From Actinomycetota bacterium (GTDB lineage Bacteria > Actinomycetota > UBA4738 > HRBIN12): 64,000 nucleotides of DNA. The position numbers were made by a program, and so were the translations under genes. Where the stretch lies: NCBI GenBank assembly GCA_049587975.1, contig JBAVEY010000149.1:20728-84727 (forward strand), written 5' to 3'. The notes beneath the pieces are model-generated. The model was not told where the DNA came from. It saw nothing but the letters and a program-made list of their open reading frames with translations, and made no database searches. How positions within the stretch are numbered: the first letter of the stretch is position 1; each line of letters begins with the position of its first letter. Below are positions 1 to 44,750 of this stretch, in pieces.

Positions 1-1
1 C

Positions 2-1507
2 AAGGTCGGCGTCGTGGGGAGGAACGGCGCCGGCAAGACCAGCCTGCTGAACGTGATCGCCGGTGACGAGTCGCCGCTGGCCGGACGGGCCGTCGTCCGC
101 GGTCGCCTCGGCTACCTGCGACAGGAGCCGCGCGGGCGCATGGACGAGGAGCATGCCGCCCTCACACACGTGCTTGAGGCGCGCGGGCTCGAGGAGATGG
201 CCGAGCGCCTCGAGAAGTCCCGGCTCGCGATGGAGGAGCGCCCGAGCGAGACCAACGTCGGGCGCTTCACGCGGTTGGAGGAGCGGTACCGGGCCGCGGG
301 CGGGTACTCGGGCGAAGCCGAGGTGCGGCGGATCGCCGCCGGTCTCGGCCTCCCCGACGACCGATTGGGGCTCCCCGTGCGGGCGTTATCCGGTGGTGAG
401 CGGCGTCGGCTCGAGCTCACCCGGATCCTGTTCTCGGGCTCGGATCTCCTGCTGCTCGACGAGCCGACGAACCACTTGGACGGCGACGCGAAGGGCTGGC
501 TGATGCGCTTCCTCGCGGCGTATCGTGGGGTCCTCGTCGTGGTGAGCCACGACCTCGCACTGCTCGACGTCGCGATCACGCGCATCCTGCACCTGGATCG
601 CGACGGCATCGTCCAGTACCGGGGGACGTACGCCGAGTACCGCGCAGCTCGACGGGCCGATGAGACGCGGCTCGGTGCGGTGGCCGGTCGTCAGCGAGCA
701 GAGGTGCGACGGCTGAAGACGCTCGCCGATTCGATGCGTGGACAGACGGTGAAGCGGGCCCGCAAGGCGAAGGCTCTCGACAGCCGCGTCCGCAAGCTGG
801 AGGAGCGGTTGGTCGAGGCGCCGACGCATGAACGCGGTGTGCGCTACCGGTTCGCCGAACCACCGCGCGCGGGCGCGTTGGTGATCGAGGCGGAGGGACT
901 GACGAAGGGGTTCGGCGGGCCGGCCGTCTTCGCGGACCTCGGGTTCCACGTGGCTCGAGGCGAGCGCCTCCTGATCATGGGGTTGAACGGAGCCGGCAAG
1001 ACGACCCTGCTCAAGATCCTCGCCGACGTCCTCGAGGCCGACGCGGGGTCGGTCCGACTCGGTCACGGCGTCTCCCTCGGCTATTACGCGCAGGAGCACG
1101 AGGGGATCAGGGACGGCGAGTCGGTGCTCGCGCACGTCCGGGCCGAGTCCATGGAGGCGTCGGACCAAGATCTCCGTCGTCTCCTCGGGATGTTCGGGCT
1201 CACCGGGCGCGTCGCCTTCCAGGACGCGGGGACCCTCTCGGGCGGCGAGAAGACCAAGCTCGCGCTCGCACAGCTGGTGGCGGGGCGACGGAATCTCGTC
1301 CTGCTCGACGAGCCCACGAACAACCTCGACCCGCCGTCTCGGACCGCGGTGGCGGAGGCCCTGGCCGGCTGGTCGGGCTCGATGGTGCTCGTGAGCCATG
1401 ACGTCGGGTTCGTCCGGGCCCTCGCCCCCCACAAGGTCCTCATGATGCCCGAGGGCGAGCTCGCGCTCTGGGACGACGATCTCCTCGAGCTCGTCGCGCT
1501 CGCCTGA
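2..1507 (+). CDS. ABC-F family ATPase with two ABC domains (EttA/Uup-like); 5' end lies outside the window
   Basis: Two Walker A motifs (GRNGAGKTSLL and GLNGAGKTTLL), two LSGGE signature motifs, and an inter-domain linker with a charged coiled region. The ORF is open to the window edge. Confidence 0.8.
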   Translation, partial: KVGVVGRNGAGKTSLLNVIAGDESPLAGRAVVRGRLGYLRQEPRGRMDEEHAALTHVLEARGLEEMAERLEKSRLAMEERPSETNVGRFTRLEERYRAAGGYSGEAEVRRIAAGLGLPDDRLGLPVRALSGGERRRLELTRILFSGSDLLLLDEPTNHLDGDAKGWLMRFLAAYRGVLVVVSHDLALLDVAITRILHLDRDGIVQYRGTYAEYRAARRADETRLGAVAGRQRAEVRRLKTLADSMRGQTVKRARKAKALDSRVRKLEERLVEAPTHERGVRYRFAEPPRAGALVIEAEGLTKGFGGPAVFADLGFHVARGERLLIMGLNGAGKTTLLKILADVLEADAGSVRLGHGVSLGYYAQEHEGIRDGESVLAHVRAESMEASDQDLRRLLGMFGLTGRVAFQDAGTLSGGEKTKLALAQLVAGRRNLVLLDEPTNNLDPPSRTAVAEALAGWSGSMVLVSHDVGFVRALAPHKVLMMPEGELALWDDDLLELVALA

Positions 1508-1576
1508 ACGGACGGATCGCTCCGCCGCGGGGACGGTCGATATGCTTCGCTCCGCCCGGCACGGTCGACCAAGGGG

Positions 1577-3256
1577 ATGTGTTCGATGACAGCGAACGGC
1601 ACCGCCGACCTCGCCTTCGTGAACGGCGACGTCTACACCGTCGACGCCTCCAGACGTTGGGCGAGCGCCGTCGCGGTCTCGGAAGGCGCGATCGTCGCGG
1701 TGGGCACCGAGGCGGAGATCCACACCGCGATCGGCACGAGCACCGATGTGATCGACCTCCGGGGGCGGATGCTCCTGCCGGGGTTCCAGGACGCCCACGT
1801 CCATCCTCCCTCGAGCGGGTTCGAGATGTTGCACTGCAACCTGTCCGAGGCGTACTCGATCGAGGGATACGAGCGGATCGTCGCCGGGTATGCCTCGGAT
1901 CACCCCGACGACGACCCGTGGATCGTCGGCGGGGGTTGGTCGATGGACGTCTTCCCGTCCGGCAACCCGCCGAAGGATGTGCTCGACCGCGTCGTGGCGG
2001 ACCGTCCCGTCTACCTGTTCAGCCGCGACGGTCACAGCGTCTGGGTGAACTCGCGCGCGCTCGAGATCGCGGGCGTCACGCGGGAGACGCCGGATCCGTC
2101 CGACGGCTGGATCGTCCGCGACGTCCACGGCGAGCCGGCGGGCACGCTCCACGAGGGGGCTCACCGGTTGGTCGAGCGACATGTCCCGCAACCGACCACG
2201 TCCGAGTGGATCGAGGGGCTGCGCGCGGCACAGCGACACCTGCATTCGCTCGGGATCACCGCATGGCAGGACGCGATCGTGGGCGGGAGCACGCCGACGC
2301 TCGACGCATACCTGGCGTTCGCCGGATCGGGGGAGCTGACCGCTCGTGTAGTGGGCGCGCTGTGGTGGGACCGAGACCGGGGACTAGAGCAGATCGAAGA
2401 CCTGGTCCAGGCCCGCGCGCGCGGTCGGGTCGGCCGGTTCGTGGCGACCAGCGTGAAGATCATGCAGGACGGCGTGATCGAGAATCACACGGCCGCGGTG
2501 CTCGAGCCCTACCTGGATGCGGACGGGAGCCCGACGGATAACCGCGGACGGTCGTTCGTCGACGCCGAGGAGCTGAAGGCGTGCGTGACGCGGCTGGACT
2601 CAGAGGGGTTCCAGGTGCACGTGCATGCGATCGGGGAACGGGGGGTGCGCGAGGCGCTGGACGCGTTCGAGGCCGCCCGGACCGCGAACGGTCCCAACGA
2701 CCTTCGCCATCACATCGCGCACATCCAGGTGGTCCATCCCGACGACATCCCGCGCTTCCGCGCGCTCGGCGTGGTGGCGAACGCGCAGCCGCTGTGGGCG
2801 GTCAACGAGGGGCAGATGCTCCACCTCACGATCCCGTTCCTGGGACCCGAGCGGTCCGGGTGGCAGTACCCGTTCGGGAGCCTCCTGCGCTCGGGTGCGG
2901 TGCTCGCGATGGGGAGCGACTGGTCCGTCTCGAGCGCGAACCCGCTCTGGGAGATGCACGTGGCCGTGAACCGCACCGCGCCGAGCGCCTACGAGTACGG
3001 CGGAGGCACCGGCGACCCCTTCCTGCCGGAGGAGCGCATCGATCTGCCGGCGGCGATCGCCGGCTTCACGATCAACAGCGCCTACGTGAACCATCTCGAC
3101 GAGCTCACCGGGTCGATCGAGGTGGGGAAGCGCGCCGACCTCGTCGTGCTCGACCGCAACGTGTTCGCCCATCCCGCGGAGGAGATCGCGGACGCCCGGG
3201 TTGTGCTCACCCTGGTCGACGGGGAGCGCGTGTTCGACGCCGAGGCGGTCGAATGA
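1577..3256 (+). CDS. Metal-dependent amidohydrolase (amidohydrolase-3-like)
   Basis: Motif GFQDAHVHP, a later HVHAIGERG motif and a C-terminal GSDWSV motif are typical of the metal-dependent amidohydrolase superfamily. Length is 559 aa. Confidence 0.7.
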   Translation: MCSMTANGTADLAFVNGDVYTVDASRRWASAVAVSEGAIVAVGTEAEIHTAIGTSTDVIDLRGRMLLPGFQDAHVHPPSSGFEMLHCNLSEAYSIEGYERIVAGYASDHPDDDPWIVGGGWSMDVFPSGNPPKDVLDRVVADRPVYLFSRDGHSVWVNSRALEIAGVTRETPDPSDGWIVRDVHGEPAGTLHEGAHRLVERHVPQPTTSEWIEGLRAAQRHLHSLGITAWQDAIVGGSTPTLDAYLAFAGSGELTARVVGALWWDRDRGLEQIEDLVQARARGRVGRFVATSVKIMQDGVIENHTAAVLEPYLDADGSPTDNRGRSFVDAEELKACVTRLDSEGFQVHVHAIGERGVREALDAFEAARTANGPNDLRHHIAHIQVVHPDDIPRFRALGVVANAQPLWAVNEGQMLHLTIPFLGPERSGWQYPFGSLLRSGAVLAMGSDWSVSSANPLWEMHVAVNRTAPSAYEYGGGTGDPFLPEERIDLPAAIAGFTINSAYVNHLDELTGSIEVGKRADLVVLDRNVFAHPAEEIADARVVLTLVDGERVFDAEAVE

Positions 3257-3378
3257 GCCGTTCGGACCGCTGACCAGCGGTCATGGCGGCTCGTTGCCAC
3301 GGGTCCGGGGCCGCCGCACGATGGCCGCGGCCCGAACGCGGGCCGGACCATCCCGTGCACGACCGAGGAGGCCCCGTC

Positions 3379-4530
3379 ATGGCGTTCGACATGAGTCAGG
3401 TCCAGCGTGGCGCTCGCAACCGCCGCACGCCGTACCACGAGGCGGCGCAGCGCTACGACCCGAAGGGCTACACGGTCTACAACCACATGTACTTCCCCAT
3501 CCGGTTCGACTCGTTCGAGGCCGAGTTCGACACGCTGCTGAACGCGGTCACCCTGTGGGACGTCTCGGTCGAGCGGTGCCTGGAGATCGGTGGGCCCGAC
3601 GGTTTCCGCTTCGCGCAGCTGCTGACGCCTCGGGACCTGTCGAGGTGCGCCGTGGGTCAAGGCAAGTACGTGCTCATCTGCGACAGCGACGGCGGGATCG
3701 TGAACGACCCGGTCCTCACGCGGATGGACGAGAACACCTTCTGGTTCGCGCTGGCCTCCTCGGACGCGCTGCTGTTCGCTCGGGGCCTGAAGAACGCGTA
3801 CCCGGACCTCGACGTGACGATCCGCGAGGCGGACGTCGCCCCGCTCCAGGTCCAGGGGCCTCGGTCCAAGGACCTGATGGCCAAGCTGCTCGGCCCCGAG
3901 ATCCTCGACCTCCGTTACTACTTCTGGACCGAGGCCAAGATCGCCGGCGCGCCGGTCGTCGTCACGAGGACCGGATGGACGTCAGAGATCGGCTACGAGG
4001 TCTATCTGACCGATACCACCAAGGGCGCAGAGGTGTACGAGGCGATCATGGACGCCGGGCAGGAGTTCGGGATCCGGCCGACCGGACCCAGCGACATCCG
4101 GCGCATCGAGGGCGCGATCTTCAACTGGGGCGCCGACATGACGTACGAGAACAATCCGCTGGAGATGGGCCTCGAGCGCCTCGTCGACTGGGACCTGTCC
4201 GATGACGCCGCTATCTCGATGGCCGCGCTCCGCGCGATCAAGGAGCACGGCGTGCGCAGGCGCATCAACGGCCTGGAGCTCGACGGCGAGCCGTTCCCCG
4301 AGCTCAACAACGTCAAGTGGCCGGTCGTGGACGGCGGGGACGAGATCGGCACGGTGACCTCGGCGATCTACTCGCCGCGGCTCGCGCGCAACATCGGGTT
4401 CGCGTGGCTCCCGGAGGAACGGTCGAAGCTCGGCGAGGGGGTCACGGTCCAGACGGAGTGGGGTCCGCGGGGCGCGACGGTGGTGGAGATGCCGTTCGTC
4501 GACCCGAACAAGCAGATCCCGGTCTCCTAG
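3379..4530 (+). CDS. GcvT-family aminomethyltransferase-like protein, probably a THF-dependent (de)methylase; paralog 1
   Basis: ATG at 3379 is preceded by a GAGGAGG Shine-Dalgarno. The protein shows GcvT-fold hallmarks (YNHMYFP, VxLWDVSVER, RTGWTSEIGYEVY, and a C-terminal barrel ending WLP). It is a paralog of the next gene. Confidence 0.7.
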   Translation: MAFDMSQVQRGARNRRTPYHEAAQRYDPKGYTVYNHMYFPIRFDSFEAEFDTLLNAVTLWDVSVERCLEIGGPDGFRFAQLLTPRDLSRCAVGQGKYVLICDSDGGIVNDPVLTRMDENTFWFALASSDALLFARGLKNAYPDLDVTIREADVAPLQVQGPRSKDLMAKLLGPEILDLRYYFWTEAKIAGAPVVVTRTGWTSEIGYEVYLTDTTKGAEVYEAIMDAGQEFGIRPTGPSDIRRIEGAIFNWGADMTYENNPLEMGLERLVDWDLSDDAAISMAALRAIKEHGVRRRINGLELDGEPFPELNNVKWPVVDGGDEIGTVTSAIYSPRLARNIGFAWLPEERSKLGEGVTVQTEWGPRGATVVEMPFVDPNKQIPVS

Positions 4531-4679
4531 CCGCTCGCGGCATCGAACCTGAAGCACTGTTCAGGCCGGATCCCGCCTCTTCGGCGACGGACCGGCTTGC
4601 GGCGGGTCCGAGTCTGAACCATGATTCAACCTCAGGATGCGGGACCCGCCCGCAGGCTCGAAGGGAGACGTGCCCCGAT

Positions 4680-5861
4680 ATGGCCAACGAACGGCAGGAG
4701 ATGCTCGAGCAAAGTGCGACGATCTACTTCGGACCGTGGTACCGGCGTTCGCCGTTCTTCGAGGCCACGCGCCGAGCGGGGTGCACGGCCTACGACGTCT
4801 ACAACCACATGCTGCTGCCTGCCTACTTCGACGACCCGGACACGGAGTACTGGGCCCTGCTGAACGACGTCACGGTCTGGGACGTGGCGGTCGAGCGGAC
4901 GGTCGAGATCTCCGGGACGGACGCCGACCGGTTCGTGGACTCCCTCACCTGCAGGGACCTCACGAAGTGCGCGGTCAAGCAGGGCAAGTACATGATCGTG
5001 ACCGCGCCCGACGGCGGGATCGTCAACGACCCCGTCCTGCTCCACGTGGGGGAGAACCGGTGGTGGATGCAGCTCGCCGACTCGGACGCGGGCCTGTACG
5101 CGCTCGGGGCCGCGTCGCGGGCCAACCTGGACGTCGAGGTGTCGTACCCCCACGCCTACCCGATCCAGGTGCAGGGAGCGAAGGCCGCCAAGACGGTCGA
5201 GAAGCTGATCGGTCCCGCCGTCTACGACCTCAGGTACTACTGGTGCGACTGGTTCGACATCGGGGACATCCCCGTACTCATCAGCCGGACCGGGTGGACG
5301 GCGGTCCAGGGCTTCGAGATCAACCTGCTCGATCCCGCCCGTGGCGACGATCTATGGAACGCGGTCTTCGGGGCGGGCGAGGAGTTCGCGATCCGGCCGG
5401 TCGCGCCCGTGGAAGCACGCCGGATCGAGGCGGGGATCATGAACTACAACTCGGACATGACGCACGAGGACACGCCGTTGCACATCATGGGACTCGAGCA
5501 CCTGGTCGAGGATCAGCCGCAGGACTACACGGGCAAGGCGTCGCTCGAGGCGATCAGGGCGGCGGGGGTCGACCGCAAGCTCGTCGGGATCGAGTGGTCG
5601 GGCGACGAGCTGAAGGCCGAGTTGTCGTGGTTCTGGCCGGTGATCCGCGACGGCGGGCAGGTCGGCCGGGTGACCGACGCGGTGTGGTCCCCACGGCTGG
5701 AGAAGAACATCGGCTACGCGTGGGTGCCGATCGATCTCGCCCAGCCGGGCACGAGGATCGACGTGGAGTCCGAGCACGGGCAGATCACGGTCACGACGGC
5801 GTCGATCCCGTTCATCGATGCTCGCAAGGAGGTCCCGGCGGCGTCCCTGCGCGGGGCGTAG
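4680..5861 (+). CDS. GcvT-family aminomethyltransferase-like protein; paralog 2
   Basis: Start is MANERQEML. The motifs YNHMLLP, VTVWDVAVER and RTGWTAVQGFEIN match those of the upstream gene, so this is a tandem paralog. Confidence 0.7.
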   Translation: MANERQEMLEQSATIYFGPWYRRSPFFEATRRAGCTAYDVYNHMLLPAYFDDPDTEYWALLNDVTVWDVAVERTVEISGTDADRFVDSLTCRDLTKCAVKQGKYMIVTAPDGGIVNDPVLLHVGENRWWMQLADSDAGLYALGAASRANLDVEVSYPHAYPIQVQGAKAAKTVEKLIGPAVYDLRYYWCDWFDIGDIPVLISRTGWTAVQGFEINLLDPARGDDLWNAVFGAGEEFAIRPVAPVEARRIEAGIMNYNSDMTHEDTPLHIMGLEHLVEDQPQDYTGKASLEAIRAAGVDRKLVGIEWSGDELKAELSWFWPVIRDGGQVGRVTDAVWSPRLEKNIGYAWVPIDLAQPGTRIDVESEHGQITVTTASIPFIDARKEVPAASLRGA

Positions 5862-5904
5862 GGTTCGGCTCGGGCGATCCCGGGGTTCGACGAGGGGAGT
5901 TCCG

Positions 5905-6336
5905 ATGGAGGGAACCAGGCTCGACCGACGGCCGCCCGAGACGGCGCCTGCGACCAAGGGCTTCCACCGGGCCCTCCTGCTCCTCGAGCGCGTCACGAAG
6001 CAGACCGTGTGGGATTGCCGCATGTGCGGTCAGTGCATCCTGCACTCGACGGGGTTGTCCTGCCCGATGCGCTGCCCCAAGAACCTGCGGAACGGCCCGT
6101 GCGGCGGCACGCTGTTGAACGGCAACTGCGAGGTCCTCCCCGAGATGAAGTGCGTGTGGGTCTCCGCCTGGGAGGACGCGCAGCGGCTCCCGCTGTGGCG
6201 CGACCACATCCGACATGTCGAGCCGCCGGTCGACTGGCGGCTCCAGGGCACGTCGTCGTGGGAGAACCTCGTGACCGGGCGGGACCGGCGGTTCCCAGCC
6301 GGGTGGACCGAACCGAAGGCCGGATCCTCCGCGTGA
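5905..6336 (+). CDS. MetV-like small Cys-rich protein (MTHFR C-terminal-like zinc-ribbon domain), probable partner subunit of MetF
   Basis: ATG at 5905 follows a GAGGGGAG Shine-Dalgarno. The Cys pattern CRMCGQCIL..LSCPMRCPKNLRNGPCGG is characteristic of the MTHFR_C/MetV domain. It sits immediately upstream of metF. Confidence 0.55.
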   Translation: MEGTRLDRRPPETAPATKGFHRALLLLERVTKQTVWDCRMCGQCILHSTGLSCPMRCPKNLRNGPCGGTLLNGNCEVLPEMKCVWVSAWEDAQRLPLWRDHIRHVEPPVDWRLQGTSSWENLVTGRDRRFPAGWTEPKAGSSA

Positions 6337-6346
6337 CGCCCGGGTC

Positions 6347-7294
6347 ATGACGGAGCGGGCTCCATACAGCGAGCTCCACCGCTTGCTCCTGGCCGGGGAG
6401 TTCGTCGTCACGGCCGAGATGCAGACGAGCGACTCGGCCGATCCCGCTCACGTGATCGGTCTCGCCGAGACCCTCAAGAGCACCGTGGACGCGGTGAACT
6501 GCACCGACAACAGCGCGGCCCACGCGCACATCTCGGCGATGGCCGCCGCGCGCCTCCTGATCGAGGACGGCCTCGAACCCGTGATGCAGTTCGTCTGCCG
6601 GGACCGGAACCGGCTCGCGCTCCAGGCGGACCTGCTCGGCGCGGCCGCCCTCGGCGTCCGCAACGTCGTGTGCATGACCGGCGACGACGTGAGCGCCGGC
6701 GACCACCCGGAGACCAAGCCCATCTATGACATCGACTCGGTTCACCTGATCCGGACGGCCAGGCTCATGCGGGACGAGGGGACCTACCTGTCCGGACGGG
6801 GCCTCACCCACGCACCCGGATTCCTGATCGGCGCGGTCGAGAACCCGTTCGCGCCGCCCCTTCGGTTCCGGCCCATGCGGCTGGGGACGAAGATCGAGGC
6901 CGGGGCCGAGTTCATCCAGACGCAGATCTGCTTCAACCTGGAGAGGATGCGGATCTTCATGGCCCGGTGCGGCGAGCTGGGGCTGCTCGACCACGTCTGG
7001 GTGCTAGCGGGGGTGTTCGTGCCGAGCTCGGCGTCGGGGACCCGGTACCTGCGCGACCACGTGCCCGGCGTGGACGTCCCGGGCGAGGTGATCGAGCGCA
7101 TGGACGGTGTCCCGCGCGAGCGTCAGAAGGAGGAGGGCATCCGGATCGCGCTCGAGGTCGTGGAGGCGGTGCGGCAGATCCCGGGGGTGTCGGGGATCCA
7201 CCTGATGACCATCAACCACGAGGAGGCGATCCCGAAGGTGGTCGAGGGGGCCGGCTTGCTGCCACGCCCCGTCGCCGCGGGCCCGGTCCCGTGA
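6347..7294 (+). CDS. metF: 5,10-methylenetetrahydrofolate reductase (MetF family)
   Basis: TIM-barrel MTHFR features are present: VTAEM near the N-terminus, NCTDN, and a QFVCRDRNR-like region. Length is 315 aa. Confidence 0.8.
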   Translation: MTERAPYSELHRLLLAGEFVVTAEMQTSDSADPAHVIGLAETLKSTVDAVNCTDNSAAHAHISAMAAARLLIEDGLEPVMQFVCRDRNRLALQADLLGAAALGVRNVVCMTGDDVSAGDHPETKPIYDIDSVHLIRTARLMRDEGTYLSGRGLTHAPGFLIGAVENPFAPPLRFRPMRLGTKIEAGAEFIQTQICFNLERMRIFMARCGELGLLDHVWVLAGVFVPSSASGTRYLRDHVPGVDVPGEVIERMDGVPRERQKEEGIRIALEVVEAVRQIPGVSGIHLMTINHEEAIPKVVEGAGLLPRPVAAGPVP

Positions 7295-7398
7295 CCCTTT
7301 CGCGCAGCCCCTGCGCCGCTCTCGTGACGTTCCCCGCGACTGGGTGAACGTCCGGGCGCCGGGTGTCGAATGCCGGCTGAACCCGACAGACTGGAGCC

Positions 7399-8508
7399 AT
7401 GACCATGAGGCGTGCCCTCCTCGCGCTCGGCGCCGTAGCGGCGTTGGCGCTGTCCGCGTGCACCACGGGAAACACCAACACCACGCAACCCCAGATGAAC
7501 GGCTCTCCGGCGGCCAATTTCCCCTCCTCTCAGCCGATGCTCTCGAGCGGCAAGGATGCCGTCGTGAACGTGGTACACAGCGTCCTGCCGGCGGTCGTGA
7601 ACGTCGTCGTCGACACCGGCGCCGGTCAAGGGGAGGGCACGGGGTTCATCGTGCGCTCGGACGGCATCATCGTGACGAACTACCACGTGGTCGAGAACGC
7701 CTCGAAGGTTACGGTGCTGACGTCGGCGGACGACCCCGTTCAGTACGACGCGCGGGTGATCGGGGGCGACGTGGGGGCTGACCTGGCGGTTCTGGACATC
7801 GATGCCAGCGACCTGCCGACCGTGACGCTCGGCGACTCGGATGCCCTGCAGCTGGGGCAGCGCGTCGTCGCGGTGGGATACGCCCTCGGCCTCGAGGGCG
7901 GCCCCTCGGTGACCGCGGGGATCGTCTCCTCGCTGACGCGGCAGATCGACGTCCAGGACAGGGGATGTCCCGTCTCGGAGTGTGGCGCCGATCAGACGCG
8001 CGTCTACGACCACGTGATCCAGACCGATGCGGCCATCAACCCTGGGAACTCCGGTGGACCGCTGCTCAACATGGACGGGCAGGTCGTCGGGATCAACTCG
8101 GCGGGTGCGAACCAGGCCGAGAACATCGGGTTCGCGATCCAGATCGATTCGGTCAAGCCGACGATCTTCCAGGCCGCCGAGCACCCGTCACAGCCCGTGG
8201 CGTTCATGGGGATCAGCTCCGGCCCGGCCTCCGACCCGCAGGTCCAGTTCCAGTTCGCTCCGCCCGTGGATCAGGGCGCTGTCATCGTCGATGTCGTGGG
8301 CGGCGGCCCCGCCGACGACGCGGGGATCGTCGTCGGTGACACCATCGTGCGGTTCGACGGCCGGACGGTGACCGACTCCGAACAGCTCGGCGGGCTGATC
8401 CATTCGCATCGGCCAGGCGACGAGGTCAGCGTAGGGATCGTCCACGCCGATGGTTCCCAGGACGAGGTCACGGTCACGCTGGGCGTGAACCCGGTCCCGA
8501 CCGCCTGA
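7399..8508 (+). CDS. HtrA/DegP-like trypsin-family serine protease with PDZ domain; lipoprotein
   Basis: A signal peptide with lipobox LALSAC is followed by a trypsin-like core (TNYHVV, GNSGGPLLN) and a C-terminal PDZ-like segment. Confidence 0.8.
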   Translation: MTMRRALLALGAVAALALSACTTGNTNTTQPQMNGSPAANFPSSQPMLSSGKDAVVNVVHSVLPAVVNVVVDTGAGQGEGTGFIVRSDGIIVTNYHVVENASKVTVLTSADDPVQYDARVIGGDVGADLAVLDIDASDLPTVTLGDSDALQLGQRVVAVGYALGLEGGPSVTAGIVSSLTRQIDVQDRGCPVSECGADQTRVYDHVIQTDAAINPGNSGGPLLNMDGQVVGINSAGANQAENIGFAIQIDSVKPTIFQAAEHPSQPVAFMGISSGPASDPQVQFQFAPPVDQGAVIVDVVGGGPADDAGIVVGDTIVRFDGRTVTDSEQLGGLIHSHRPGDEVSVGIVHADGSQDEVTVTLGVNPVPTA

Positions 8509-8556
8509 TCCAGAGCGTGGCGGCCCCTGCCCCGGTGGTGCGCTAGCCTGACCTGC

Positions 8557-9759
8557 GTGAAGGTGAGGCTCCGCAACCCCGACCGGGAGGTCGAGCTCGC
8601 CGGCGGTCGCAAGATCCACGACGTCCTCGGTGAGCTGGGCATCAACCCCGACACCGTGCTCGTGATCCGCGAGCGCGAGCTGCTCACGCGCGAGGACCGC
8701 GTCGCGGAGGCCGACGTCATCGAGGTCCGACCGGTGATCAGCGGCGGCGCCCGCGTCGAGAACCGGATGAAGTGCCGGCGCTGCAAGGCGCCGGCGGTGG
8801 TCGAGATCCGCCGGCACAACGCGGCCTTCTGCGCCGACTGCTTCCTGCGCCACGTGCGCGAGCAGGTCAGACGGGCGATCGGGGCGCACGACATGTTCGT
8901 GGCATCCGACCGGATCCTCGTAGCGGTCTCCGGCGGCAAGGACTCGCTCGCGCTCTGGGACGTGCTGCTCGAACTCGGCTACCGGGCGGATGGACTCTAC
9001 CTGGGCCTCGGGATCGGCGAGTACTCGGACCGGTCGCACGACCTCGCGGCGACGTTCGCCCGCGAGCGCGGCGCCCATCTCGTCGAGGTGGATCTTGCCC
9101 GCGACTACGGGTTCGACGTCCCAACCGCCGGACGCAAGGGCTCGCGCTCGACGTGCGCGGTCTGCGGCCTATCCAAGCGGTACGTCTTCAACCGGACCGC
9201 TCGCGAGGGCGGGTACGACGTGATCGCGACGGGCCACAACCTGGACGACGAGGCGGCCACGCTCCTCGGGAACACCTTGCGGTGGCAGACCGACTACATC
9301 GCGCGCCAGTCCCCGGTGCTCCCCGCGGAGGAGGGGTTCGCCCGCAAGGTCAAGCCCTTGTACCGCCTGTCGGAGCTCGAGACCGCCGCGTTCGCGTTCC
9401 TGCGCGGGATCGACTACGTGGTCGAGGAGTGCCCGCTGGTCGGCGGGAACACGCAGCTCCGCTACAAGGAGGCCATGAACCAGCTCGAGTCGACCTCTCC
9501 GGGAACCAAGGCGCAGTTCCTCTTCGGCTACCTCGAGCGCGCCGCCCCGCTCTTCGCGACACAGGACGACGTGCGGCTCGTCGGGTGCGAACGCTGCGGC
9601 CAGCCGACCACCGGTCGTTTCTGTGCCTTCTGCCGCGCGCAGGCCCAGATCCTGGGCGAGCGGCTCGAGGCGCCCCGGGACGCAGGTGATCGCGAGACGG
9701 CCGCGCAGCTTTCCGAGGAGGTCCTTCCCGTCGAGATCTTCGGGGCGGCCAACCGGTGA
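8557..9759 (+). CDS. Fusion of a ThiS/MoaD/TtuB-like beta-grasp domain (internal GG at about residues 63-64) to a TtuA/NcsA-like PP-loop tRNA thiolase
   Basis: GTG at 8557. The first ~64 residues end ...VIEVRPVISGG and read straight through a 6-aa linker (ARVENR) with no stop. They are followed by an N-terminal zinc finger (CRRCKAP..CADC), the PP-loop SGGKDS, a central CAVCG and a C-terminal zinc finger (CERCG..CAFC), as in TtuA. Confidence 0.65.
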   Translation: MKVRLRNPDREVELAGGRKIHDVLGELGINPDTVLVIRERELLTREDRVAEADVIEVRPVISGGARVENRMKCRRCKAPAVVEIRRHNAAFCADCFLRHVREQVRRAIGAHDMFVASDRILVAVSGGKDSLALWDVLLELGYRADGLYLGLGIGEYSDRSHDLAATFARERGAHLVEVDLARDYGFDVPTAGRKGSRSTCAVCGLSKRYVFNRTAREGGYDVIATGHNLDDEAATLLGNTLRWQTDYIARQSPVLPAEEGFARKVKPLYRLSELETAAFAFLRGIDYVVEECPLVGGNTQLRYKEAMNQLESTSPGTKAQFLFGYLERAAPLFATQDDVRLVGCERCGQPTTGRFCAFCRAQAQILGERLEAPRDAGDRETAAQLSEEVLPVEIFGAANR

Positions 9760-10532
9760 TCGGACCCTTCGAGGCGGGCGAGAAGATCCTGTTGGTGGAT
9801 CAGCGGGACCGCAGGTACCTGCTCACGCTCCAACACGGCGTGACCTGGCACTCGCACGGCGGTGGGCTGCCGCACGACCTGCTGATCGGGTCCGCCGAGG
9901 GCACCCTGGTGCACTCGGCGACCGGGATGGCCTTCCGGGCGTTCCGCCCGCGGATGGCCGACTTCGTGCTGAAGATGCCGCGGGGCGCGCAGGTCGTCTA
10001 CCCGAAGGACGTGGGCGCGATCCTGGTCGGTGCCGACGTCTTCCCCGGATCGCGGGTCCTGGAAGCGGGGACGGGTTCGGGCTCGCTGACGCTCGCCTTG
10101 TGCCGCGCGACCGGCCCCGAGGGCCGGGTCGTCTCCTATGACCTCCGACCCGAGTTCCAGGCCGGTGCCGCCCGGAACATCGAGTCGTTCTTCGGGAAGA
10201 TGCCCGACTGGCTCGAGCTCCGCGGCGGCGACGTCCGCGAGATCGCCGGGAGCGGCGAGATCTTCGACCGCGCGATCTTGGACCTGCCGGAGCCCTGGGC
10301 GATGCTCGAGCCGCTCGCGAGCGCCCTGCCCGCGGGAGCGATCGTGTGCGGGTACCTGCCCACGACCAACCAGGTGCAGGAGCTGGTACTCGCGTTGGGA
10401 CGCAACGGGTACGAGCATCTGGAGACCTTCGAGGTGCTGCACCGGTCCTGGCATGTGACGGCCCGGAGCGTCCGGCCGGATCAGCGCATGGTCGCGCACA
10501 CGGGGTTCATCACCTTGGCTCGTCGCATCTGA
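9756..10532 (+). CDS. trmI: tRNA (adenine58-N1)-methyltransferase TrmI
   Basis: The SAM-methyltransferase fold has the motifs VLEAGTGSGSLT and an ILDLPEPW-like region. Its position directly upstream of arc matches Rv2118c-like synteny. The start is GTGA-coupled to the upstream gene. Confidence 0.8.
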   Translation: MIGPFEAGEKILLVDQRDRRYLLTLQHGVTWHSHGGGLPHDLLIGSAEGTLVHSATGMAFRAFRPRMADFVLKMPRGAQVVYPKDVGAILVGADVFPGSRVLEAGTGSGSLTLALCRATGPEGRVVSYDLRPEFQAGAARNIESFFGKMPDWLELRGGDVREIAGSGEIFDRAILDLPEPWAMLEPLASALPAGAIVCGYLPTTNQVQELVLALGRNGYEHLETFEVLHRSWHVTARSVRPDQRMVAHTGFITLARRI

Positions 10533-10656
10533 CAGGCCTCAGGTAAGGCGTCCGAGCGGCCGACAACCGTATCCATAGGCCAGAAGACGTCCCCCGAACC
10601 TCACCGATCGAGGGCGGGGCCGGGGGTATGCTTCCGCACCGCGGGAGGTGAAGGAG

Positions 10657-12408
10657 ATGCCGGAGCCGGATCCACGCGAACAACAGGAACAGCACGAGAA
10701 GCAGGTCCACGAACTGCAGACGCAGGTCCGCTTCCTCGAGGACGAGGTCTCGCTGCTGCGACGCCGGCTCACGAACGCTCCCCGTCAGGTCAAGCTGCTC
10801 GAGGACAAGCTCCTCGAGGCTCGGTCGGATCTCTCCCGCGCGCTCGGCCAGAACGAGAAGCTCGCCGGCACCCTGCAGGCCGAGAAGGAGCGGATCGAAG
10901 GGCTGCGTGAGGAGGTCGAGAAGCTGAGCCAGCCCCCCGCGTCATTCGGCGTGTACCTGACGTCCAACGACGACGGCTCGGTGGACGTGTTCACGGCGGG
11001 GCGCAAGATGCGGGTCAACGTCTCGCCGGACGTGGAGGCCGACCGGCTGCATAAGGGCGCCGAGGTGATCCTGAACGAGGCCCTGAACGTCGTGGACGTG
11101 CTCACGCCCGATCGGGCCGGGGAGGTCGTGAAGGTCAAGGACCGGCTCGGCGACGATCGCGTGATCGTGGTCGGCCGTGGCGACGAGGAGCTCGTCGCCA
11201 CGCTCGGGACGTCGTTGTTGGGAGAGCAGATCCGCGCGGGGGACCCCCTCCTGATCGACCCCCGGTCCAACGTGGCGCTCGAGAAGCTGCCGAAGGAAGA
11301 GGTCGAGGAACTGGTTCTCGAAGAGGTCCCCGACGTCTCCTACGAGGACATCGGCGGACTCGAGGGCCAGATCGAGGCGATCCGTGACGCGGTGGAGCTG
11401 CCCTTCCTGTACGCGGAGCTCTTCCAGGAGCACCAGCTCGAGGCGCCGAAGGGCGTGCTGCTGTACGGGCCGCCGGGGTGCGGCAAGACCCTGATCGCCA
11501 AGGCCGTGGCGAAGTCGTTGGCCGACAAGGTGCGGGAGCGCACAGGACGCCAGGACGCGCACTCGTACTTCCTCAACATCAAGGGGCCCGAGCTGCTGAA
11601 CAAGTACGTGGGCGAGACCGAGCGCCAGATCCGTCAGATCTTCCAGCGGGCGAAGGAACGGAGCGAGGAGGGCCTGCCGGTCATCGTGTTCTTCGACGAG
11701 ATGGACTCGATCTTCCGGACCCGCGGCACGGGGATCTCGAGCGACGTGGAGTCGACGATCGTGCCCCAACTCCTGTCGGAGCTCGACGGGGTCGAGACCC
11801 TGAAGAACGTGATCGTGATCGGCGCGTCGAACCGCGAGGACCTGATCGATCCCGCGATCCTGCGCCCCGGGCGCCTCGACGTGAAGATCAAGATCGAGCG
11901 CCCCGACGCCGCCCAGGCGGGCGACATCATGGGGAAGTACCTCAACCCTTCCGTGCCGATCCACCCCGAGGACGTGGCCCGCGCCAACGGCGACCTGAAC
12001 ACCGCGACCAAGCGGATGATCCAATCCACGGTGGACCGGATGTACTCGGAGGCGGAGGACAACCGGTTCCTGGAGGTGACCTACGCGAGCGGCGACAAGG
12101 AGATCCTGTACTTCAAGGACTTCAACTCGGGCGCGATGATCGAGAACATCGTGCGCCGCGCGAAGAAGGAGGCGATCAAGCGCTTCCTGTCGACGGGCGA
12201 GAAGGGGATCAAGGCCGAGGACCTGACGCACGCGATCCGAGACGAGTTCAAGGAGAACGAGGATCTGCCGAACACGACGAACCCCGATGACTGGGCGCGG
12301 ATCTCGGGTAAGAAGGGCGAGCGGATCGTGTACGTCCGGACCCTCCTCGGCGACGGGGACGGCGAGGGCAGGCAGGTCGAGCGGGTCAGCGCCGGCCAGT
12401 ACCTGTAA
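10657..12408 (+). CDS. arc: Proteasome-associated AAA+ ATPase ARC/Mpa
   Basis: There is an N-terminal coiled coil, Walker A GPPGCGKT, Walker [11 protein letters not shown] and the C-terminal docking motif GQYL. An alternative GTG start lies at 10648. Confidence 0.9.
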
Positions 12409-12417
12409 GGTCCCGAG

Positions 12418-13902
12418 ATGGCCATCGCGAAGGTCATCGGTACCGAGACCGAGTACGGCATCTCCGCGGTGGCGTCGCCCGAGTTCAATCCGGTCATCTC
12501 GTCGTCGTTGCTGATCAGCACCTACGCGGGGGCGCTGCGTCGGATCCGGTGGGACTACGAGCAGGAGTCTCCGCTCCGCGACGCGCGAGGCTTCGAGCCG
12601 GTCCAGCTCCGGGAACCGTCGGAAGAGGACCTCGGGCTGGCGAACGTGATCTTGCCGAACGGCGCGCGGTACTACGTCGACCACGCCCATCCCGAGTACT
12701 CCACCCCCGAGTGCGCGACCCCGCGGGCCCTCGTGATCCACGACAAGGCCGGCGAGCGTGTGCTCGAGCGGTCGCTCGAGGAGGTCCACCGGACGATGCC
12801 GGGCGGTCCTCGGCTCGCCGTCTACAAGAACAACAGCGACGGCAAGGGCAACTCCTACGGGACGCACGAGAACTACCTCGTCGACCGCCGGGTGCCCTTC
12901 GGGAGCCTCGTCTCCGGGCTCACCCCGTTCTTCGTGAGCCGCCAGATCTTCTGCGGCGCCGGCAAGCTCGGGGGAGAGGCGGCGTGGGACGAGCGCTCGC
13001 GCGACCGCTACCAGCTCACGCAGCGCGCCGACTTCTTCGAGGCCGAGGTTGGCTTGGAGACGACGCTCAAGCGCCCGATCATCAACACCCGCGACGAGCC
13101 GCACGCCGACCCCGAGAAGTACCGGCGGCTGCACGTGATCATCGGCGACGCGAACCTGTGCGAGGTCGCGACGCTGTTGAAGCTCGGGACGACCTCGCTG
13201 GTCCTCAAGCTGATCGAGGACGACGACGTCCCCGATCTGACCCTCGCGTCGCCGGTGCCGTCCCTGCACGACGTGTCGCGCGATCTCACCTGCACCGGGC
13301 TCATCCGTCTCGCGGACGGCCGGAAGCTCACGGCGGTGCAGATGCAGTGGGAGTACCTCGAGCGGGCGAGGAAGTACGTCGAACAGGAGGACACCACCGC
13401 CGACAACCTCGAGGTGCTCGAGCGCTGGGAGGCCGTCCTGACGGCGCTCGAGGACGACCCGATGCAGCTGTCGCGTGAGCTCGACTGGGTCGCGAAGTAC
13501 CGGCTGCTCGACGGCTATCGCGAACGTGACGGCCTGGACTGGTCCGATGCCAGGTTGCGGCTGATCGACCTCCAGTACCACGACGTCCGTCGCGACAAGG
13601 GCCTCTACCACCGGCTCGTCGCCACCGGGCAGGTGGAGCGGCTCGTCTCCGACGAGGACGTGGAGCGAGCGATCATGGAGCCACCGGAGGATACGCGCGC
13701 CTATTTCCGAGGGCGCTGCATCGCCCGGTACCCCGACTCGATCGCCGCCGCGTCGTGGGACTCGATCATCTTCGACACCGGCGCGGACGCGCTCCAGCGC
13801 GTGCCGATGCGCGAACCCCTCCGAGGGACCAAGGAGCACGTCGACGGGGTCCTGGCGCGGGCCGGCGACGCGGGCGAGCTCGTCGAGCTGCTCCGGTCGT
13901 AG
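12418..13902 (+). CDS. dop: Pup deamidase/depupylase Dop
   Basis: This is a PafA/Dop-family protein (GTETEYG at the N-terminus) located between arc and pup. Confidence 0.9.
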   Translation: MAIAKVIGTETEYGISAVASPEFNPVISSSLLISTYAGALRRIRWDYEQESPLRDARGFEPVQLREPSEEDLGLANVILPNGARYYVDHAHPEYSTPECATPRALVIHDKAGERVLERSLEEVHRTMPGGPRLAVYKNNSDGKGNSYGTHENYLVDRRVPFGSLVSGLTPFFVSRQIFCGAGKLGGEAAWDERSRDRYQLTQRADFFEAEVGLETTLKRPIINTRDEPHADPEKYRRLHVIIGDANLCEVATLLKLGTTSLVLKLIEDDDVPDLTLASPVPSLHDVSRDLTCTGLIRLADGRKLTAVQMQWEYLERARKYVEQEDTTADNLEVLERWEAVLTALEDDPMQLSRELDWVAKYRLLDGYRERDGLDWSDARLRLIDLQYHDVRRDKGLYHRLVATGQVERLVSDEDVERAIMEPPEDTRAYFRGRCIARYPDSIAAASWDSIIFDTGADALQRVPMREPLRGTKEHVDGVLARAGDAGELVELLRS

Positions 13903-14025
13903 CGTTCGGCGCGGGTAGAATCGCGGGACCTGGCGGCGCCGGATCGAGCGCGGCGGTGAGCGTGCCGGTCGTAGGTGGAGTCGGACGTGCCAGGCGGACG
14001 TGCCGGGCGGACGTAAGGAGCGGCC

Positions 14026-14226
14026 GTGCCTCAGGAGCAGGAGCAGAAGAAGACCCAGAAGCGATCCGGCGGCGGCTCGGATGACGAGGCCGGCCAGGTC
14101 TCCTCGGCCGCCAAGGGCGAGAAGCTGAAGGAGGAGATGGACGACATCCTCGACGAGATCGACTCCGTCCTGGAGGAGAACGCCGAGGAATTCGTCAAGT
14201 CGTACGTCCAGAAGGGCGGCGAATGA
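14026..14226 (+). CDS. pup: Prokaryotic ubiquitin-like protein Pup (PupE variant, C-terminal GGE)
   Basis: 66 aa, intrinsically disordered and acidic, with a C-terminal ...[13 protein letters not shown]. The stop codon overlaps the prcB start (ATGA). Confidence 0.9.
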
Positions 14227-15029
14227 CCGCGGGTCCACCGTCCCCGCCCGAAGCCTCGGGCGGACCGATCGGCGCGAACCCGAGCTTCTTCGATCTCGTG
14301 CGGACGAGTCGTCCCGAGACCCTGCCGTCGGCGCCCGGAACCTCCGACGTCGTGGCGCCGCACGGGACGACCGTGGTCGCGCTCAAGTTCGCCTCGGGTG
14401 TCGTGTTCGGAGGCGACCGGCGCGCCACGGAGGGCTTCTCGATCGCCGACGAGAAGATGGAGAAGGTCTTCGCGGCGGACGACTTCTCCGTGATCGCGAT
14501 CGCCGGCGCCGCGGGCCAGGCCATCGAGATCGTCAAGCTGTTCCAGCTCGAGCTCGAGCACTACGAGAAGATCACGGGGGACCGCCTGTCGCTGGAAGGC
14601 AAGGCGAACCGGCTCGCGCAGATGATCCGAGGGAACCTGCCGATGGCGATCCAGGGCCTGGTCGTGGTCCCGCTGTTCGGCGGCTTCGACGAGCGCCGCG
14701 CGGAGGGCCGGATCTTCTACTACGACGCCACCGGCGGTCGGTGGGAGGAGGATGACTTCCACGCGACCGGGTCGGGCGGGCGTCCCGCCAAGAGCTCCTT
14801 GAAGAAGCGCTGGCGTGCGGGTCTGGATCGCGCCGAGGCCCTGCAGGTCGCCGTCGAGGCGCTGGTGGACGCGTCGCAGGAGGATGCCGCGACCGGGGGC
14901 CCCGACCCGACACGCGGGATCTTCCCGACCGTGGTCGCGGTGACATCCGGGGGAGCGGAGACGGTCGGGGACGACGAGCTGCGGACTGCGTACGACGGCG
15001 TCGTCGCACGCGGTGGTGGATCCGCATGA
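14223..15029 (+). CDS. prcB: 20S proteasome beta subunit PrcB
   Basis: The propeptide is followed by the HG|TTVVAL active-site Thr1 context. Confidence 0.9.
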
Positions 15030-15712
15030 GCTTCATGCCCTACGTGCCGCCCGAGCAGCTGATGAAGGATCGGTCCGACTTCGCGCACAAGGGGATCGCG
15101 CGAGGGAAGTCGGTCGTCGGCCTCGAGTACGCGGGCGGCGTCCTGTTCATCGCGGAGAACCCGAGTGCCACGCTGCACAAGATCAGCGAGATCTACGACC
15201 GGATCGCGTTCGCCGGCGTCGGCAAGTACAGTGAGTTCGAGGACCTGCGCATCAGCGGGGTGCGCCATGCCGACCTGCGGGGCTACTCGTACGGGCGAGA
15301 CGACGTGCGCGCCCGGGATCTCGCGAACGCCTACTCGCAGGCCCTGTCGACGATCTTCACCCAGCAGATGAAGCCGTACGAGGTCGAGATCTTGGTGGGC
15401 GAGGTGGGCGAGGGATCCGGGGGCAACGAAATCTACCACGTCTTGTTCGACGGGACGGTGACCGACGAGCACGAGCACGTCGCGATCGGCGGCCACGCGG
15501 AGGAGCTTTCGAGCGCGGTGCAGGCGGCGTTCGAGCCCGGCTGGGACCTGTCGACGGCGGTCCGGGAGGCCGTGAGGGCCCTGTCGACCGCCGAGGGCCG
15601 TGAGATCGTGGCCGAGCAGGTGGAGGCGGGGGTCCTCGACCGGGCGCGTGCGCAGCGCCGGAAGTTCCGCCGCCTGTCCGAGGACGAGGTGGCGCAGATC
15701 CTCGCCGGCTGA
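15026..15712 (+). CDS. prcA: 20S proteasome alpha subunit PrcA
   Basis: Alpha-subunit family protein immediately downstream of prcB, with an ATGA overlap. Confidence 0.9.
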   Translation: MSFMPYVPPEQLMKDRSDFAHKGIARGKSVVGLEYAGGVLFIAENPSATLHKISEIYDRIAFAGVGKYSEFEDLRISGVRHADLRGYSYGRDDVRARDLANAYSQALSTIFTQQMKPYEVEILVGEVGEGSGGNEIYHVLFDGTVTDEHEHVAIGGHAEELSSAVQAAFEPGWDLSTAVREAVRALSTAEGREIVAEQVEAGVLDRARAQRRKFRRLSEDEVAQILAG

Positions 15713-15752
15713 GGCTCCACCCCTTCGTGGGGGTGGGGCCTAGACTCGATGC

Positions 15753-17111: not shown

Positions 17112-17191
17112 GTGGCGTGGTCCGACGGCCGAGCGCGCGAACCTGGCCGACCTGTCCGCGTTCGTCGACGCGCCGGTCCGCTAGGCGAGGT

Positions 17192-18310: not shown

Positions 18311-18333
18311 GGCGGAAGTATGATGCCGCCGCC

Positions 18334-32015: not shown

Positions 32016-32630
32016 GTGCCGCGGGACCCGTTCGTCGAGCTCGAGGATGCCCGCAGGAGCGTGCTCGCGGAGGCCGAGCGGTTCGTCGACGAGCTCGAGC
32101 CCGCCCTGGGCGAGAGCCTGCGGGCCGGGTTCGCGCGGCTCAAGGTCGCCCAGGCCGACGCGGCGGGGCGGCTCGGCCAGGAGAGCCAGGCGGCCCTCGA
32201 ACGTGCGGTGGACCGGGCGATCGATCTCGGCGTGACCGAGGTGATCGGGCGGCTGCGCTCGCCCGAGCTCTGGCTGGCGCCGCTCACCGCGCCCGACCTG
32301 CCGCCGCGGACCGACCCGGCTCGCCCGCTCGGGATGCCCGAGTGGGTCGCGCGGCTGGGGCGCTCGGTACGCGAACGCCCATCGCTCGGCGCGCTCGACG
32401 ACATGTCCAACCGCATCTGGGTCGCGGTCTCCGCGGCCGCCAAGCCGCTCGATCCGGTGCTCAAGGAGTTCGGGTTCCGGCCGGAGCGCCGGCGTCTGGG
32501 CGGGGGCAGCTTCGGCGTGGCGGCGCGGACGTTGCCACAGCTCGATCCGAGCGGCGGGCTGGGGCGCCGGTGGAAGCGGTACCGCGCCGCGTACGAACGT
32601 CTCGTCGCGCTCGCCGCCGCGGACCTCTAG
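32016..32630 (+). CDS. Hypothetical protein
   Basis: 204-aa ORF with no recognisable motifs, convergent with the Lrp gene. Confidence 0.35.
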   Translation: MPRDPFVELEDARRSVLAEAERFVDELEPALGESLRAGFARLKVAQADAAGRLGQESQAALERAVDRAIDLGVTEVIGRLRSPELWLAPLTAPDLPPRTDPARPLGMPEWVARLGRSVRERPSLGALDDMSNRIWVAVSAAAKPLDPVLKEFGFRPERRRLGGGSFGVAARTLPQLDPSGGLGRRWKRYRAAYERLVALAAADL

Positions 32631-41788: not shown

Positions 41789-41877
41789 GAGCGTCCCCTG
41801 CCGATCCGGCGGACCACCCACGCGCACGGGAGCCCCGACGCGCGGCGCCGGGTCGCCGGTCGGGGGCGCGGCGTCGC

Positions 41878-44746: not shown

Positions 44747-44750
44747 CGAG

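Follow-up and report, generated by a model that had tools for sequence, protein, structure and literature searches.

Genes for tetrahydrofolate (THF)-dependent demethylases lying beside a gene for methylene-THF reductase (MTHFR) are already known from bacteria. The ligM-metF-ligH cluster of Sphingobium SYK-6 is reportedly a demethylase-plus-MetF arrangement of this kind, and the MetF found there, in the SAR11_1265-metF pair and in the chloromethane (cmu) pathway of Methylobacterium CM4 is said, as far as these systems have been described, to be a single subunit. The latter two, with MetF oxidising methyl-THF in the chloromethane pathway, are precedents for a THF methyltransferase gene beside metF (PMC3160333). 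DmdA, which acts on dimethylsulfoniopropionate (DMSP), makes 5-methyl-THF by redox-neutral methyl transfer (PMC5395565), and MTHFRs of the two-subunit MetFV type are found mainly in anaerobes (PMC8515935). Here we describe the locus par1-par2-metV-metF in a 64-kb stretch of DNA (the window; GC about 70%) from an Actinomycetota bacterium (contig JBAVEY010000149.1), the part of this genome that was analysed. We hold with moderate confidence that the paralogs par1 and par2 encode onium-compound:THF methyltransferases making 5-methyl-THF, which MetV and MetF (MetVF) would interconvert with methylene-THF. The four genes are as follows.

3379-4530, + strand: par1, candidate DmdA-like THF-dependent methyltransferase, 383 aa, GcvT fold (PF01571, E 1.8e-42; PF08669, E 2.3e-17)
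4680-5861, + strand: par2, second DmdA-like paralog, 393 aa (PF01571, E 4e-33; PF08669, E 6.9e-16)
5905-6336, + strand: metV, predicted small Fe-S subunit of a MetFV-type methylene-THF reductase, 143 aa (PF12225, E 8.5e-26)
6347-7294, + strand: metF, predicted catalytic (flavin) subunit of the same reductase, 315 aa (PF02219, E 2.2e-31)

Protein families were scanned with the curated cut-offs of Pfam and NCBIfam and RNA families with Rfam, the AlphaFold2 (AF2) model of par1 was compared with the PDB, and all trees are unbootstrapped neighbour-joining (NJ) trees. A preliminary description of this DNA had placed an amidohydrolase, two paralogous GcvT-fold proteins, a MetV-like protein and MetF in positions 1577-7294, and the Pfam matches bear this out at the same or nearly the same coordinates, with 44% identity between par1 and par2 across 370 residues (E 4e-110). 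It had also suspected that the two paralogs lie outside bona fide GcvT, the T-protein of glycine cleavage, which proved correct. The best NCBIfam model for both is that of DmdA, NF009133 (332.8 bits for par1 and 297.6 bits for par2); the Tdm, SoxA, dimethylglycine oxidase (DMGO), LigM and DesA models score lower. Both GcvT models leave the two proteins below their cut-offs (NF001567: 178.9 and 150.2 bits against 300; TIGR00528: 156.9 and 125.2 bits against 235.85). By sequence, the closest PDB entry is DmdA of P. ubique (SAR11_0246, 3TFH), which aligns end to end with par1 at E 2.4e-69 and with par2 at E 9e-63. The AF2 model of par1, with a predicted local distance difference test (pLDDT) score of 94.3, also has 3TFH as its top fold match (template modelling (TM) scores 0.92/0.95, root-mean-square deviation 1.6 A), ahead of T-proteins (TM 0.84-0.87) and LigM (TM 0.70). 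DmdA thus shares with par1 and par2 the three-domain GcvT-like fold, alignment over the full length and the length class (369 aa vs. 383 and 393). LigM and DesA, in contrast, have about 450-470 aa and are structurally more distant; their models give the two paralogs only 40-58 bits against cut-offs of 580 and 800, which places par1 and par2 outside the LigM/DesA class.

The signature residues tell the same story. In human GcvT, M56, D101, Y197 and E204 are the canonical THF residues and R233 is specific to GcvT, and the D101N and D101A variants are inactive (PMC9551070). Two of these five are kept in par1 and par2 and three are replaced. The equivalents of D101 and E204 are present in par1, par2 and DmdA, while Glu stands at the M56 position in all three, Trp replaces the Tyr of GcvT at the Y197 position (RTGWT in par1 and par2, SGW in 3TFH), and the R233 position holds Ser in par1, Val in par2 and Asn in DmdA. 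None of 50 family members has Arg at the R233 position, and 33 of them have Trp at the Y197 position. In par1 the signature residues are E65, N109-D110, W200, E207 and S238; those of par2 are the same apart from V at the GcvT-Arg position and F/N in GFEINL. The Trp of DmdA is W171 in the numbering of the work that identified it as a residue central to the specific interaction with DMSP (PMC7487153). DmdA therefore resembles par1 and par2 in the VNDP motif, the Trp described as DMSP-specific, the Glu at the GcvT Met position and the lack of a GcvT-type Arg. A replacement of the catalytic Asp by Asn in par1 and par2 was considered and rejected, as the sequence of PDB entry 3A8K (title ETD97N) puts the catalytic Asp at the second D of GGVIDD, and this residue is conserved. 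By HMM (hidden Markov model), fold or signature residues par1 and par2 are not T-proteins, and the automated label "glycine cleavage T protein" for the par1 family is contradicted by all three. In their fold and substrate/folate pocket both appear to be DmdA-like, which falls short of demonstrating that they are DmdA. A look-up of the exact par1 sequence returned no record. Literature searches on MetV together with GcvT, on DmdA-like proteins including DmdA of soil phyla, and on MetVF from aerobes returned no characterised relative of par1 or par2 and no member of their clade with an assigned substrate.

The two genes downstream match the MetFV type. Enzymes of this type have a MetV with the "MTHFR C-terminal" motif NGPCGG, [4Fe-4S]-binding Cys residues, and metV directly upstream of metF, at times overlapping it; MetV carries two [4Fe-4S] clusters in C. 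ljungdahlii and A. woodii and one in others (PMC8515935). The most likely start of metV is the ATG at 5905, behind GAGGGGAG, giving 143 aa, and the relatives are called at 143-146 aa. The MTHFR_C assignment made earlier for this open reading frame (ORF) withstood the HMM search, with 89.9 bits against a cut-off of 23 for PF12225 (DUF5981, "MTHFR C-terminal"). NGPCGG (N63-G64-P65-C66-G67-G68) and eight Cys (C38, C41, C44, C53, C57, C66, C75 and C83) are invariant in 40 homologs, and MetV is predicted to carry two [4Fe-4S] clusters. No solved structure matched MetV by sequence, and its AF2 model is poor (pLDDT 61, below 50 in the Cys-rich part). MetF scores 109.7 bits against the PF02219 cut-off of 24, has as its best NCBIfam match the MTHFR half of PRK08645 (194 bits), and keeps equivalents of E. 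coli D120 and Q183; the alignment at E28 is not reliable. The gaps are 43 nt between par2 and metV and 10 nt between metV and metF, and in one relative (L088) metV and metF overlap by 4 nt. Judged by its sequence, the pair thus has all three features of the MetFV type. It resembles the MetFV (2S) enzymes of acetogens such as Clostridium ljungdahlii in having metV directly upstream of metF, NGPCGG, Cys for two [4Fe-4S] clusters and a MetF of the PF02219/YitJ-C-terminal type (PMC8515935). However, C. ljungdahlii MetV has 23.5 kDa and the protein here about 16 kDa, and the Wood-Ljungdahl cluster context is absent. Moreover, the acetogen enzymes occur mainly in anaerobes, whereas relatives of the window's host encode O2-dependent Rieske oxygenases beside metVF.

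Conserved elements stand upstream of par1 and of par2, and are best read as promoters and operators.

3270-3322, + strand: putative par1 promoter/operator; palindrome CTGACCAGCGGTCA at 3270-3283, -35 TTGCCA at 3294-3299, -10 CACGAT at 3317-3322, spacing 17 nt
4550-4628, + strand: putative par2 promoter/operator; distal palindrome TGAAGCACTGTTCA at 4550-4563, -35 TTGCGG at 4597-4602 and, 17 nt further, -10 CATGAT at 4620-4625, the latter inside the proximal palindrome TGAACCATGATTCA at 4615-4628

The pattern CTGACYNNNGGTCA has two matches in the window where 0.04 are expected by chance; the other one lies inside a tRNA gene. In 516 kb of relatives, 17 of 19 occurrences of TGACY-N3-GGTCA are 97-182 nt upstream of par1, and the par1 upstream region can be aligned across 12 relatives. 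TGAA-N6-TTCA occurs in the 64 kb only at the two par2 sites, 4550-4563 and 4615-4628 (0.08 expected by chance). Of its 26 sites in 431 kb of relatives, 23 are in the par1-par2 spacer; the remaining three, perfect TGAAC-N4-GTTCA, stand 49-85 nt upstream of a Rieske oxygenase gene in three relatives. The proximal par2 palindrome is kept in all 22 loci of the lineage with at most two mismatches. These conserved spacers argue for three transcription units, with par1 probably regulated apart from par2, each by its own conserved promoter and palindrome. Because the gaps downstream of par2 are 43 and 10 nt and no terminator-like site was found in positions 1-9000, metV-metF most likely ride on the par2 transcript. 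The notion of a single cassette across 1577-7294 does not fit this layout, in which each of par1 and par2 has a conserved putative promoter/operator region of its own and metV-metF closely follow par2 alone. An Rfam search of positions 3150-6000 with a threshold as loose as E <= 1 gave no riboswitch or other family. The two different palindromes (TGACY-N3-GGTCA and TGAAC-N4-GTTCA, seen in relatives L004-L091) would imply two regulators; no regulator gene is adjacent. We take the GAAC-N4-GTTC core to resemble the Gram-positive LexA box, although the flanking base differs (T, not C).

We also examined the locus in relatives, the closest of which are soil metagenome-assembled genomes (MAGs) labelled Actinomycetota. 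A scan of one genome per species gave 80 loci, and more were added by exact-protein look-ups. In one Actinomycetota lineage the order ABC-F, amidohydrolase, par1, par2, HtrA, TtuA is kept, and par2 orthologs have 61-89% identity. The 22 locus types of this lineage, the window included, all have par1-par2 as a constant core; metVF is found in 14, always as a metV-metF pair, and a Rieske oxygenase gene in 8, distributed as follows.

metV-metF only: 9 locus types, the window among them
metV-metF and a Rieske oxygenase gene upstream of par1: 5 locus types
Rieske gene only: 3 locus types
neither metVF nor a Rieske gene: 5 locus types

Because the doubly positive loci fall in three separate parts of the NJ tree of par1 and par2, the ancestral locus was probably Rieske-par1-par2-metV-metF. 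At least two losses of metVF and at least three of the Rieske gene would then have occurred in the lineage, and by the same reconstruction the window's genome has lost its Rieske gene. In one relative (L017) the match to metF, at 13120-13895, splits into two parts read in different frames, owing either to an assembly error or to a frameshift that has made the gene a pseudogene; in the latter case it may represent a stage in the recurrent loss of metVF.

The Rieske protein of the relatives is closest to stachydrine demethylase Stc2 (3VCA) and carnitine monooxygenase CntA (6Y8J), with E about 4e-43, whereas aromatic dioxygenases match at 1e-28 or weaker. GbcA is also among its nearest known relatives, but at 159-176 bits the protein is far below the cut-off of 670 of the GbcA model NF058607. 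It also differs from Stc2, CntA and GbcA in having no adjacent reductase partner, and its gene is absent from the window. Methoxy-aromatic substrates, one of the classes named earlier for assay, are not what this context indicates; the Stc2/CntA/GbcA-like Rieske proteins and the amine oxidases near homologs point to N-methyl or betaine substrates.

Outside the lineage, par1 homologs at 54-76% identity occur in Chloroflexota, Gaiellaceae, Gemmatimonadota, Bryobacterales, Burkholderiales and others, with varying neighbours. A Chloroflexia MAG (L026) has par1-par2-Rieske without MetVF, and the contig with the par2-like protein P0125 encodes an amine-oxidase-like FAD protein, the GcvT-like protein and a Ring_hydroxyl_A protein. 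Clustering of neighbours revealed no single conserved partner of the distant par1 homologs, only amine oxidase/CrtI-like proteins, aminotransferases, Tdm-like GcvT proteins and housekeeping genes. Among distant homologs, a gene for a CrtI/amine-oxidase-like FAD protein is directly 5' of the par1 homolog, in one case with overlapping stop and start codons. In Gaiellaceae (loci L038-L041, about 10001-12330; in L039, 2398-4029), a par1 homolog of about 60% identity has another GcvT-like gene behind it, which scores best (306 bits) against the model of the C-terminal domain of trimethylamine N-oxide (TMAO) demethylase. One or two CrtI/amine-oxidase-like FAD proteins are encoded upstream of these genes, and this FAD protein is also found with par1 homologs in several Gemmatimonadota. 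A par1 homolog of 54% identity (L073) lies on contig VBMN01000060.1, binned as a Methanobacteriota archaeon, which suggests horizontal transfer or mis-binning.

Taken with the DmdA-like pocket, this context suggests a mechanism in which par1 and par2 would move a methyl group, intact, from a small sulfonium or quaternary-ammonium compound to N5 of THF, yielding 5-methyl-THF. With two separately regulated promoters, the paralogs probably serve two different substrates or conditions. The par2 transcript would also encode an MTHFR of two subunits, a flavin-bearing MetF and a MetV bearing the two predicted [4Fe-4S] clusters, interconverting 5-methyl-THF and 5,10-methylene-THF. Its direction here would most likely be oxidative, bringing the harvested methyl group into the one-carbon (C1) pool, and an acceptor other than a pyridine nucleotide would favour that direction. 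Betaine-type substrates seem favoured because an ancestral Stc2/CntA/GbcA-like Rieske N-demethylase gene probably stood upstream and because the palindrome type of par2 also precedes the Rieske gene in three relatives; DMSP and S-methylmethionine are also candidates. To our knowledge, direct methyl transfer to THF in the GcvT fold has so far been found only for the sulfonium DMSP. A more specific version, which we offer only tentatively, is that par1 and/or par2 transfer a methyl group directly from a quaternary-ammonium betaine (glycine betaine, proline betaine or carnitine) to THF, and that an oxygen-tolerant MetVF then oxidises 5-methyl-THF with a non-pyridine-nucleotide acceptor.

Several observations weigh against the methyltransferase reading. 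Neither paralog reaches the equivalog cut-off of the DmdA model (333 and 298 vs. 410 bits). Plain identity is less decisive than the profiles, at 34% and 32% to DmdA and 30% and 28% to B. subtilis GcvT for par1 and par2, respectively. In the NJ tree of 50%-identity representatives, B. subtilis GcvT forms a long outgroup branch and par1 and par2 stand together in a separate clade within the DmdA-like radiation. The Asp on which N10 chemistry depends in GcvT and DMGO is kept, which would be compatible with methylene-THF formation as well. A scan of positions 1-9000 for consensus promoters and terminators found nothing, the putative promoters being recognised by their conservation. No transporter, regulator or further C1-THF enzyme adjoins par1-par2-metVF. 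The direction of MetVF cannot be read from the sequence, and the enzyme may be no more than the MTHFR with which the cell makes methionine. Finally, 8 of the 22 locus types that keep par1-par2 lack metVF, and in the loci of other phyla that were examined (Chloroflexota, Gemmatimonadota and others) no MetF of the window type or the E. coli type was found within 10 kb of a par1 homolog. The link of metVF to par1-par2 therefore rests on one Actinomycetota lineage, and independent recurrence of a par-MTHFR association in unrelated lineages was not seen in the loci examined. The idea of a demethylase coupled to an MTHFR is still reasonable and has precedents, but the association is confined to this lineage and was probably lost there at least twice.

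The reductive direction deserves consideration in its own right. MetVF may be an ordinary reductive MTHFR for methionine and S-adenosylmethionine, with par2, possibly par1 too, as a methyl-salvage enzyme giving 5-methyl-THF straight to methionine synthase, so that the operon groups two methyl-THF sources. The characterised MetFV enzymes are physiologically reductases (PMC8515935), and there is a parallel in Phaeobacter, where DmdA is reported to feed DMSP-derived methyl groups to the methionine cycle. No folD, purU or fhs lies next to par1-par2-metVF in the window, unlike in the ligM-metF-ligH or cmu clusters, and no other metF was seen in the window, although this covers only 64 kb of the genome. 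However, the absence of metVF from 8 of the 22 related locus types means that it is not indispensable at this site, and the association with a Rieske N-demethylase gene carrying the same palindrome type looks catabolic. We consider this explanation rather unlikely. Alternatively, par1 and par2 could be THF-dependent C1-capture proteins, comparable to the GcvT-type domains of DMGO, sarcosine oxidase and TMAO demethylase, which would trap, in the form of 5,10-methylene-THF, the formaldehyde or iminium that a Rieske oxygenase or FAD amine oxidase releases. This would account for the catalytic Asp (E. coli D97, human D101) and folate Glu kept in both proteins, for the Stc2/CntA/GbcA-like Rieske genes that adjoin par1/par2 in 8 locus types, the Chloroflexia MAG and the P0125 contig, and for the FAD protein gene that directly precedes distant homologs and once overlaps one. 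Yet par1-par2 have persisted through each loss of the Rieske gene, no oxidase adjoins them in the window, both have putative promoters of their own, and the par1 palindrome differs from the Rieske one. In addition, DmdA, the solved enzyme to which the paralogs are nearest in both sequence and fold, is a true methyltransferase and also keeps the Asp, and the Tdm, SoxA and DMGO models score clearly lower. Capture of this kind therefore strikes us as unlikely.

The remaining alternative, that par1 or par2 is the lineage's T-protein, bears on the glycine cleavage genes, which were correctly located elsewhere in the window, at 40.4-43.2 kb and 48.9-49.3 kb on the other strand.

41878-43203, - strand: gcvPA
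about 40370-41880, - strand: gcvPB
inside 48870-49334, - strand: gcvH

They are 35-45 kb from par1-par2-metV-metF. A tblastn search with E. coli and B. subtilis GcvT queries found no GcvT-like ORF besides par1 and par2 in the 64 kb that hold gcvPA, gcvPB and gcvH, which speaks for this alternative. So do the presence of D101 and E204 equivalents and the universal retention of par1-par2 inside a housekeeping synteny block, at about 90% identity among the top 120 of 7994 database matches. However, in other Actinobacteria, M. tuberculosis among them, gcvT does not lie with gcvH and gcvP, and the gcvH-FHA-MerR-nuclease-MerR-gcvP order of the window presumably corresponds to the Rv1826-Rv1832 region of that species (gcvH-garA-MerR-nuclease-MerR-gcvP). 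Because gcvT is unlinked in the mirrored region, the lack of a gcvT in the window is uninformative. With both GcvT cut-offs failed, the GcvT-specific Arg and the canonical Met and Tyr absent and the structure nearer to DmdA, a T-protein role is highly improbable.

Compared with the described systems, the arrangement of par2 and metVF, adjacent and co-directional and kept in 14 of 22 locus types, is that of the catabolic demethylase-MTHFR cassettes. As in ligM-metF-ligH, SAR11_1265-metF and CM4 cmu, a gene for a THF-dependent methyl-transferring enzyme would lie beside that of an MTHFR proposed to oxidise 5-methyl-THF to methylene-THF, but MetF is without MetV in those systems and is here joined by the MetV Fe-S subunit. 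The window also lacks the adjacent folD, purU and fhs that set ligM-metF-ligH and cmu apart. DmdA itself differs from par1 and par2 in several respects: identity is 32-34%, its host is a marine Alphaproteobacterium and theirs a soil Actinomycetota, and par1 and par2 form a conserved tandem pair with no dmdB/C/D-like genes adjacent. A demethylase gene beside an MTHFR gene is thus already known. What is new is a distinct DmdA-like clade occurring as a conserved and apparently separately regulated pair, a MetV/MetF Fe-S reductase in place of MetF alone, and a soil actinobacterial host lineage whose relatives have O2-dependent oxygenases at the same locus. The par1 family is abundant in soil metagenomes, with at least 7994 matches among 8000 candidates scored and 480 clusters (50% identity) at E <= 1e-30, and spans Actinomycetota, Chloroflexota, Gemmatimonadota, Bryobacterales and Burkholderiales. 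If its members are onium-compound methyltransferases, they would be a considerable and so far overlooked sink, within the C1 cycle of soils, for osmolytes from plants and microbes. The betaine version, if true, would amount to a previously unrecognised way of harvesting methyl groups that is widespread among soil bacteria, and MetFV-type MTHFRs would have an oxidative physiological role in aerobes. A MetV/MetF pair outside anaerobes could also help with the question of the electron partners of MetFV enzymes.

Two further genes precede par1 and bring the co-directional series at the locus to six.

14-1507, + strand: ABC-F ATPase (ABC_tran, Pfam)
1577-3256, + strand: YtcJ-like amidohydrolase (PF07969 Amidohydro_3, E 1.3e-92)

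The amidohydrolase had been proposed to supply the methylated substrate. Its best PDB matches are the uncharacterised hydrolases 3IGH and 3ICJ, its synteny with par1 is limited to the Actinomycetota lineage, and it is missing from par1 contexts outside. The putative par1 promoter stands between the two genes in the window, and inserted genes part them in L016-L019, L021, L024, L034 and L088; sequence motifs suggest that the L017 insert encodes a histidine kinase in antisense orientation, which gave no lead to a regulator. We therefore rejected the amidohydrolase as a substrate supplier, lineage synteny being the sole support for it, and nothing seen at the locus links it in function to par1/par2.

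Downstream of metF are HtrA, TtuA and TrmI, followed by Pup-proteasome genes. These form a complete block at 10648-19275 (Mpa/ARC, Dop, Pup, proteasome subunits and PafA), with DUF3866 and a WYL/WCX (PafBC-like) regulator next to it, and the block fits an actinobacterial origin. The gcv region at 43609-49334 (- strand) contains, in order, gcvH, an FHA/zinc-ribbon (GarA-like) gene, MerR, a D-Ala-D-Ala carboxypeptidase, a phosphoribosyltransferase, a bifunctional nuclease and MerR, with gcvPA and gcvPB following, the P-protein being divided between two subunits. With Rfam, no glycine riboswitch was detected in the whole window, upstream of gcvPA included. A c-di-GMP-I riboswitch is found at 40109-40195 (- strand; 42.1 bits vs. 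a gathering score of 35), directly upstream of a small CAP/SCP-domain ORF at 39582-40070 (- strand) that lies just downstream of gcvPB; a second CAP-domain ORF is 4 kb away, at 44201-44746 (+ strand). Finally, a 245-aa ORF at 33187-33924 (+ strand) has a weak reverse-transcriptase match (RVT_1, E 1.9e-7) and is flanked by an AsnC/Lrp regulator at 32627-33088 (- strand) and a second Amidohydro_3 paralog at 33972-35483 (+ strand).

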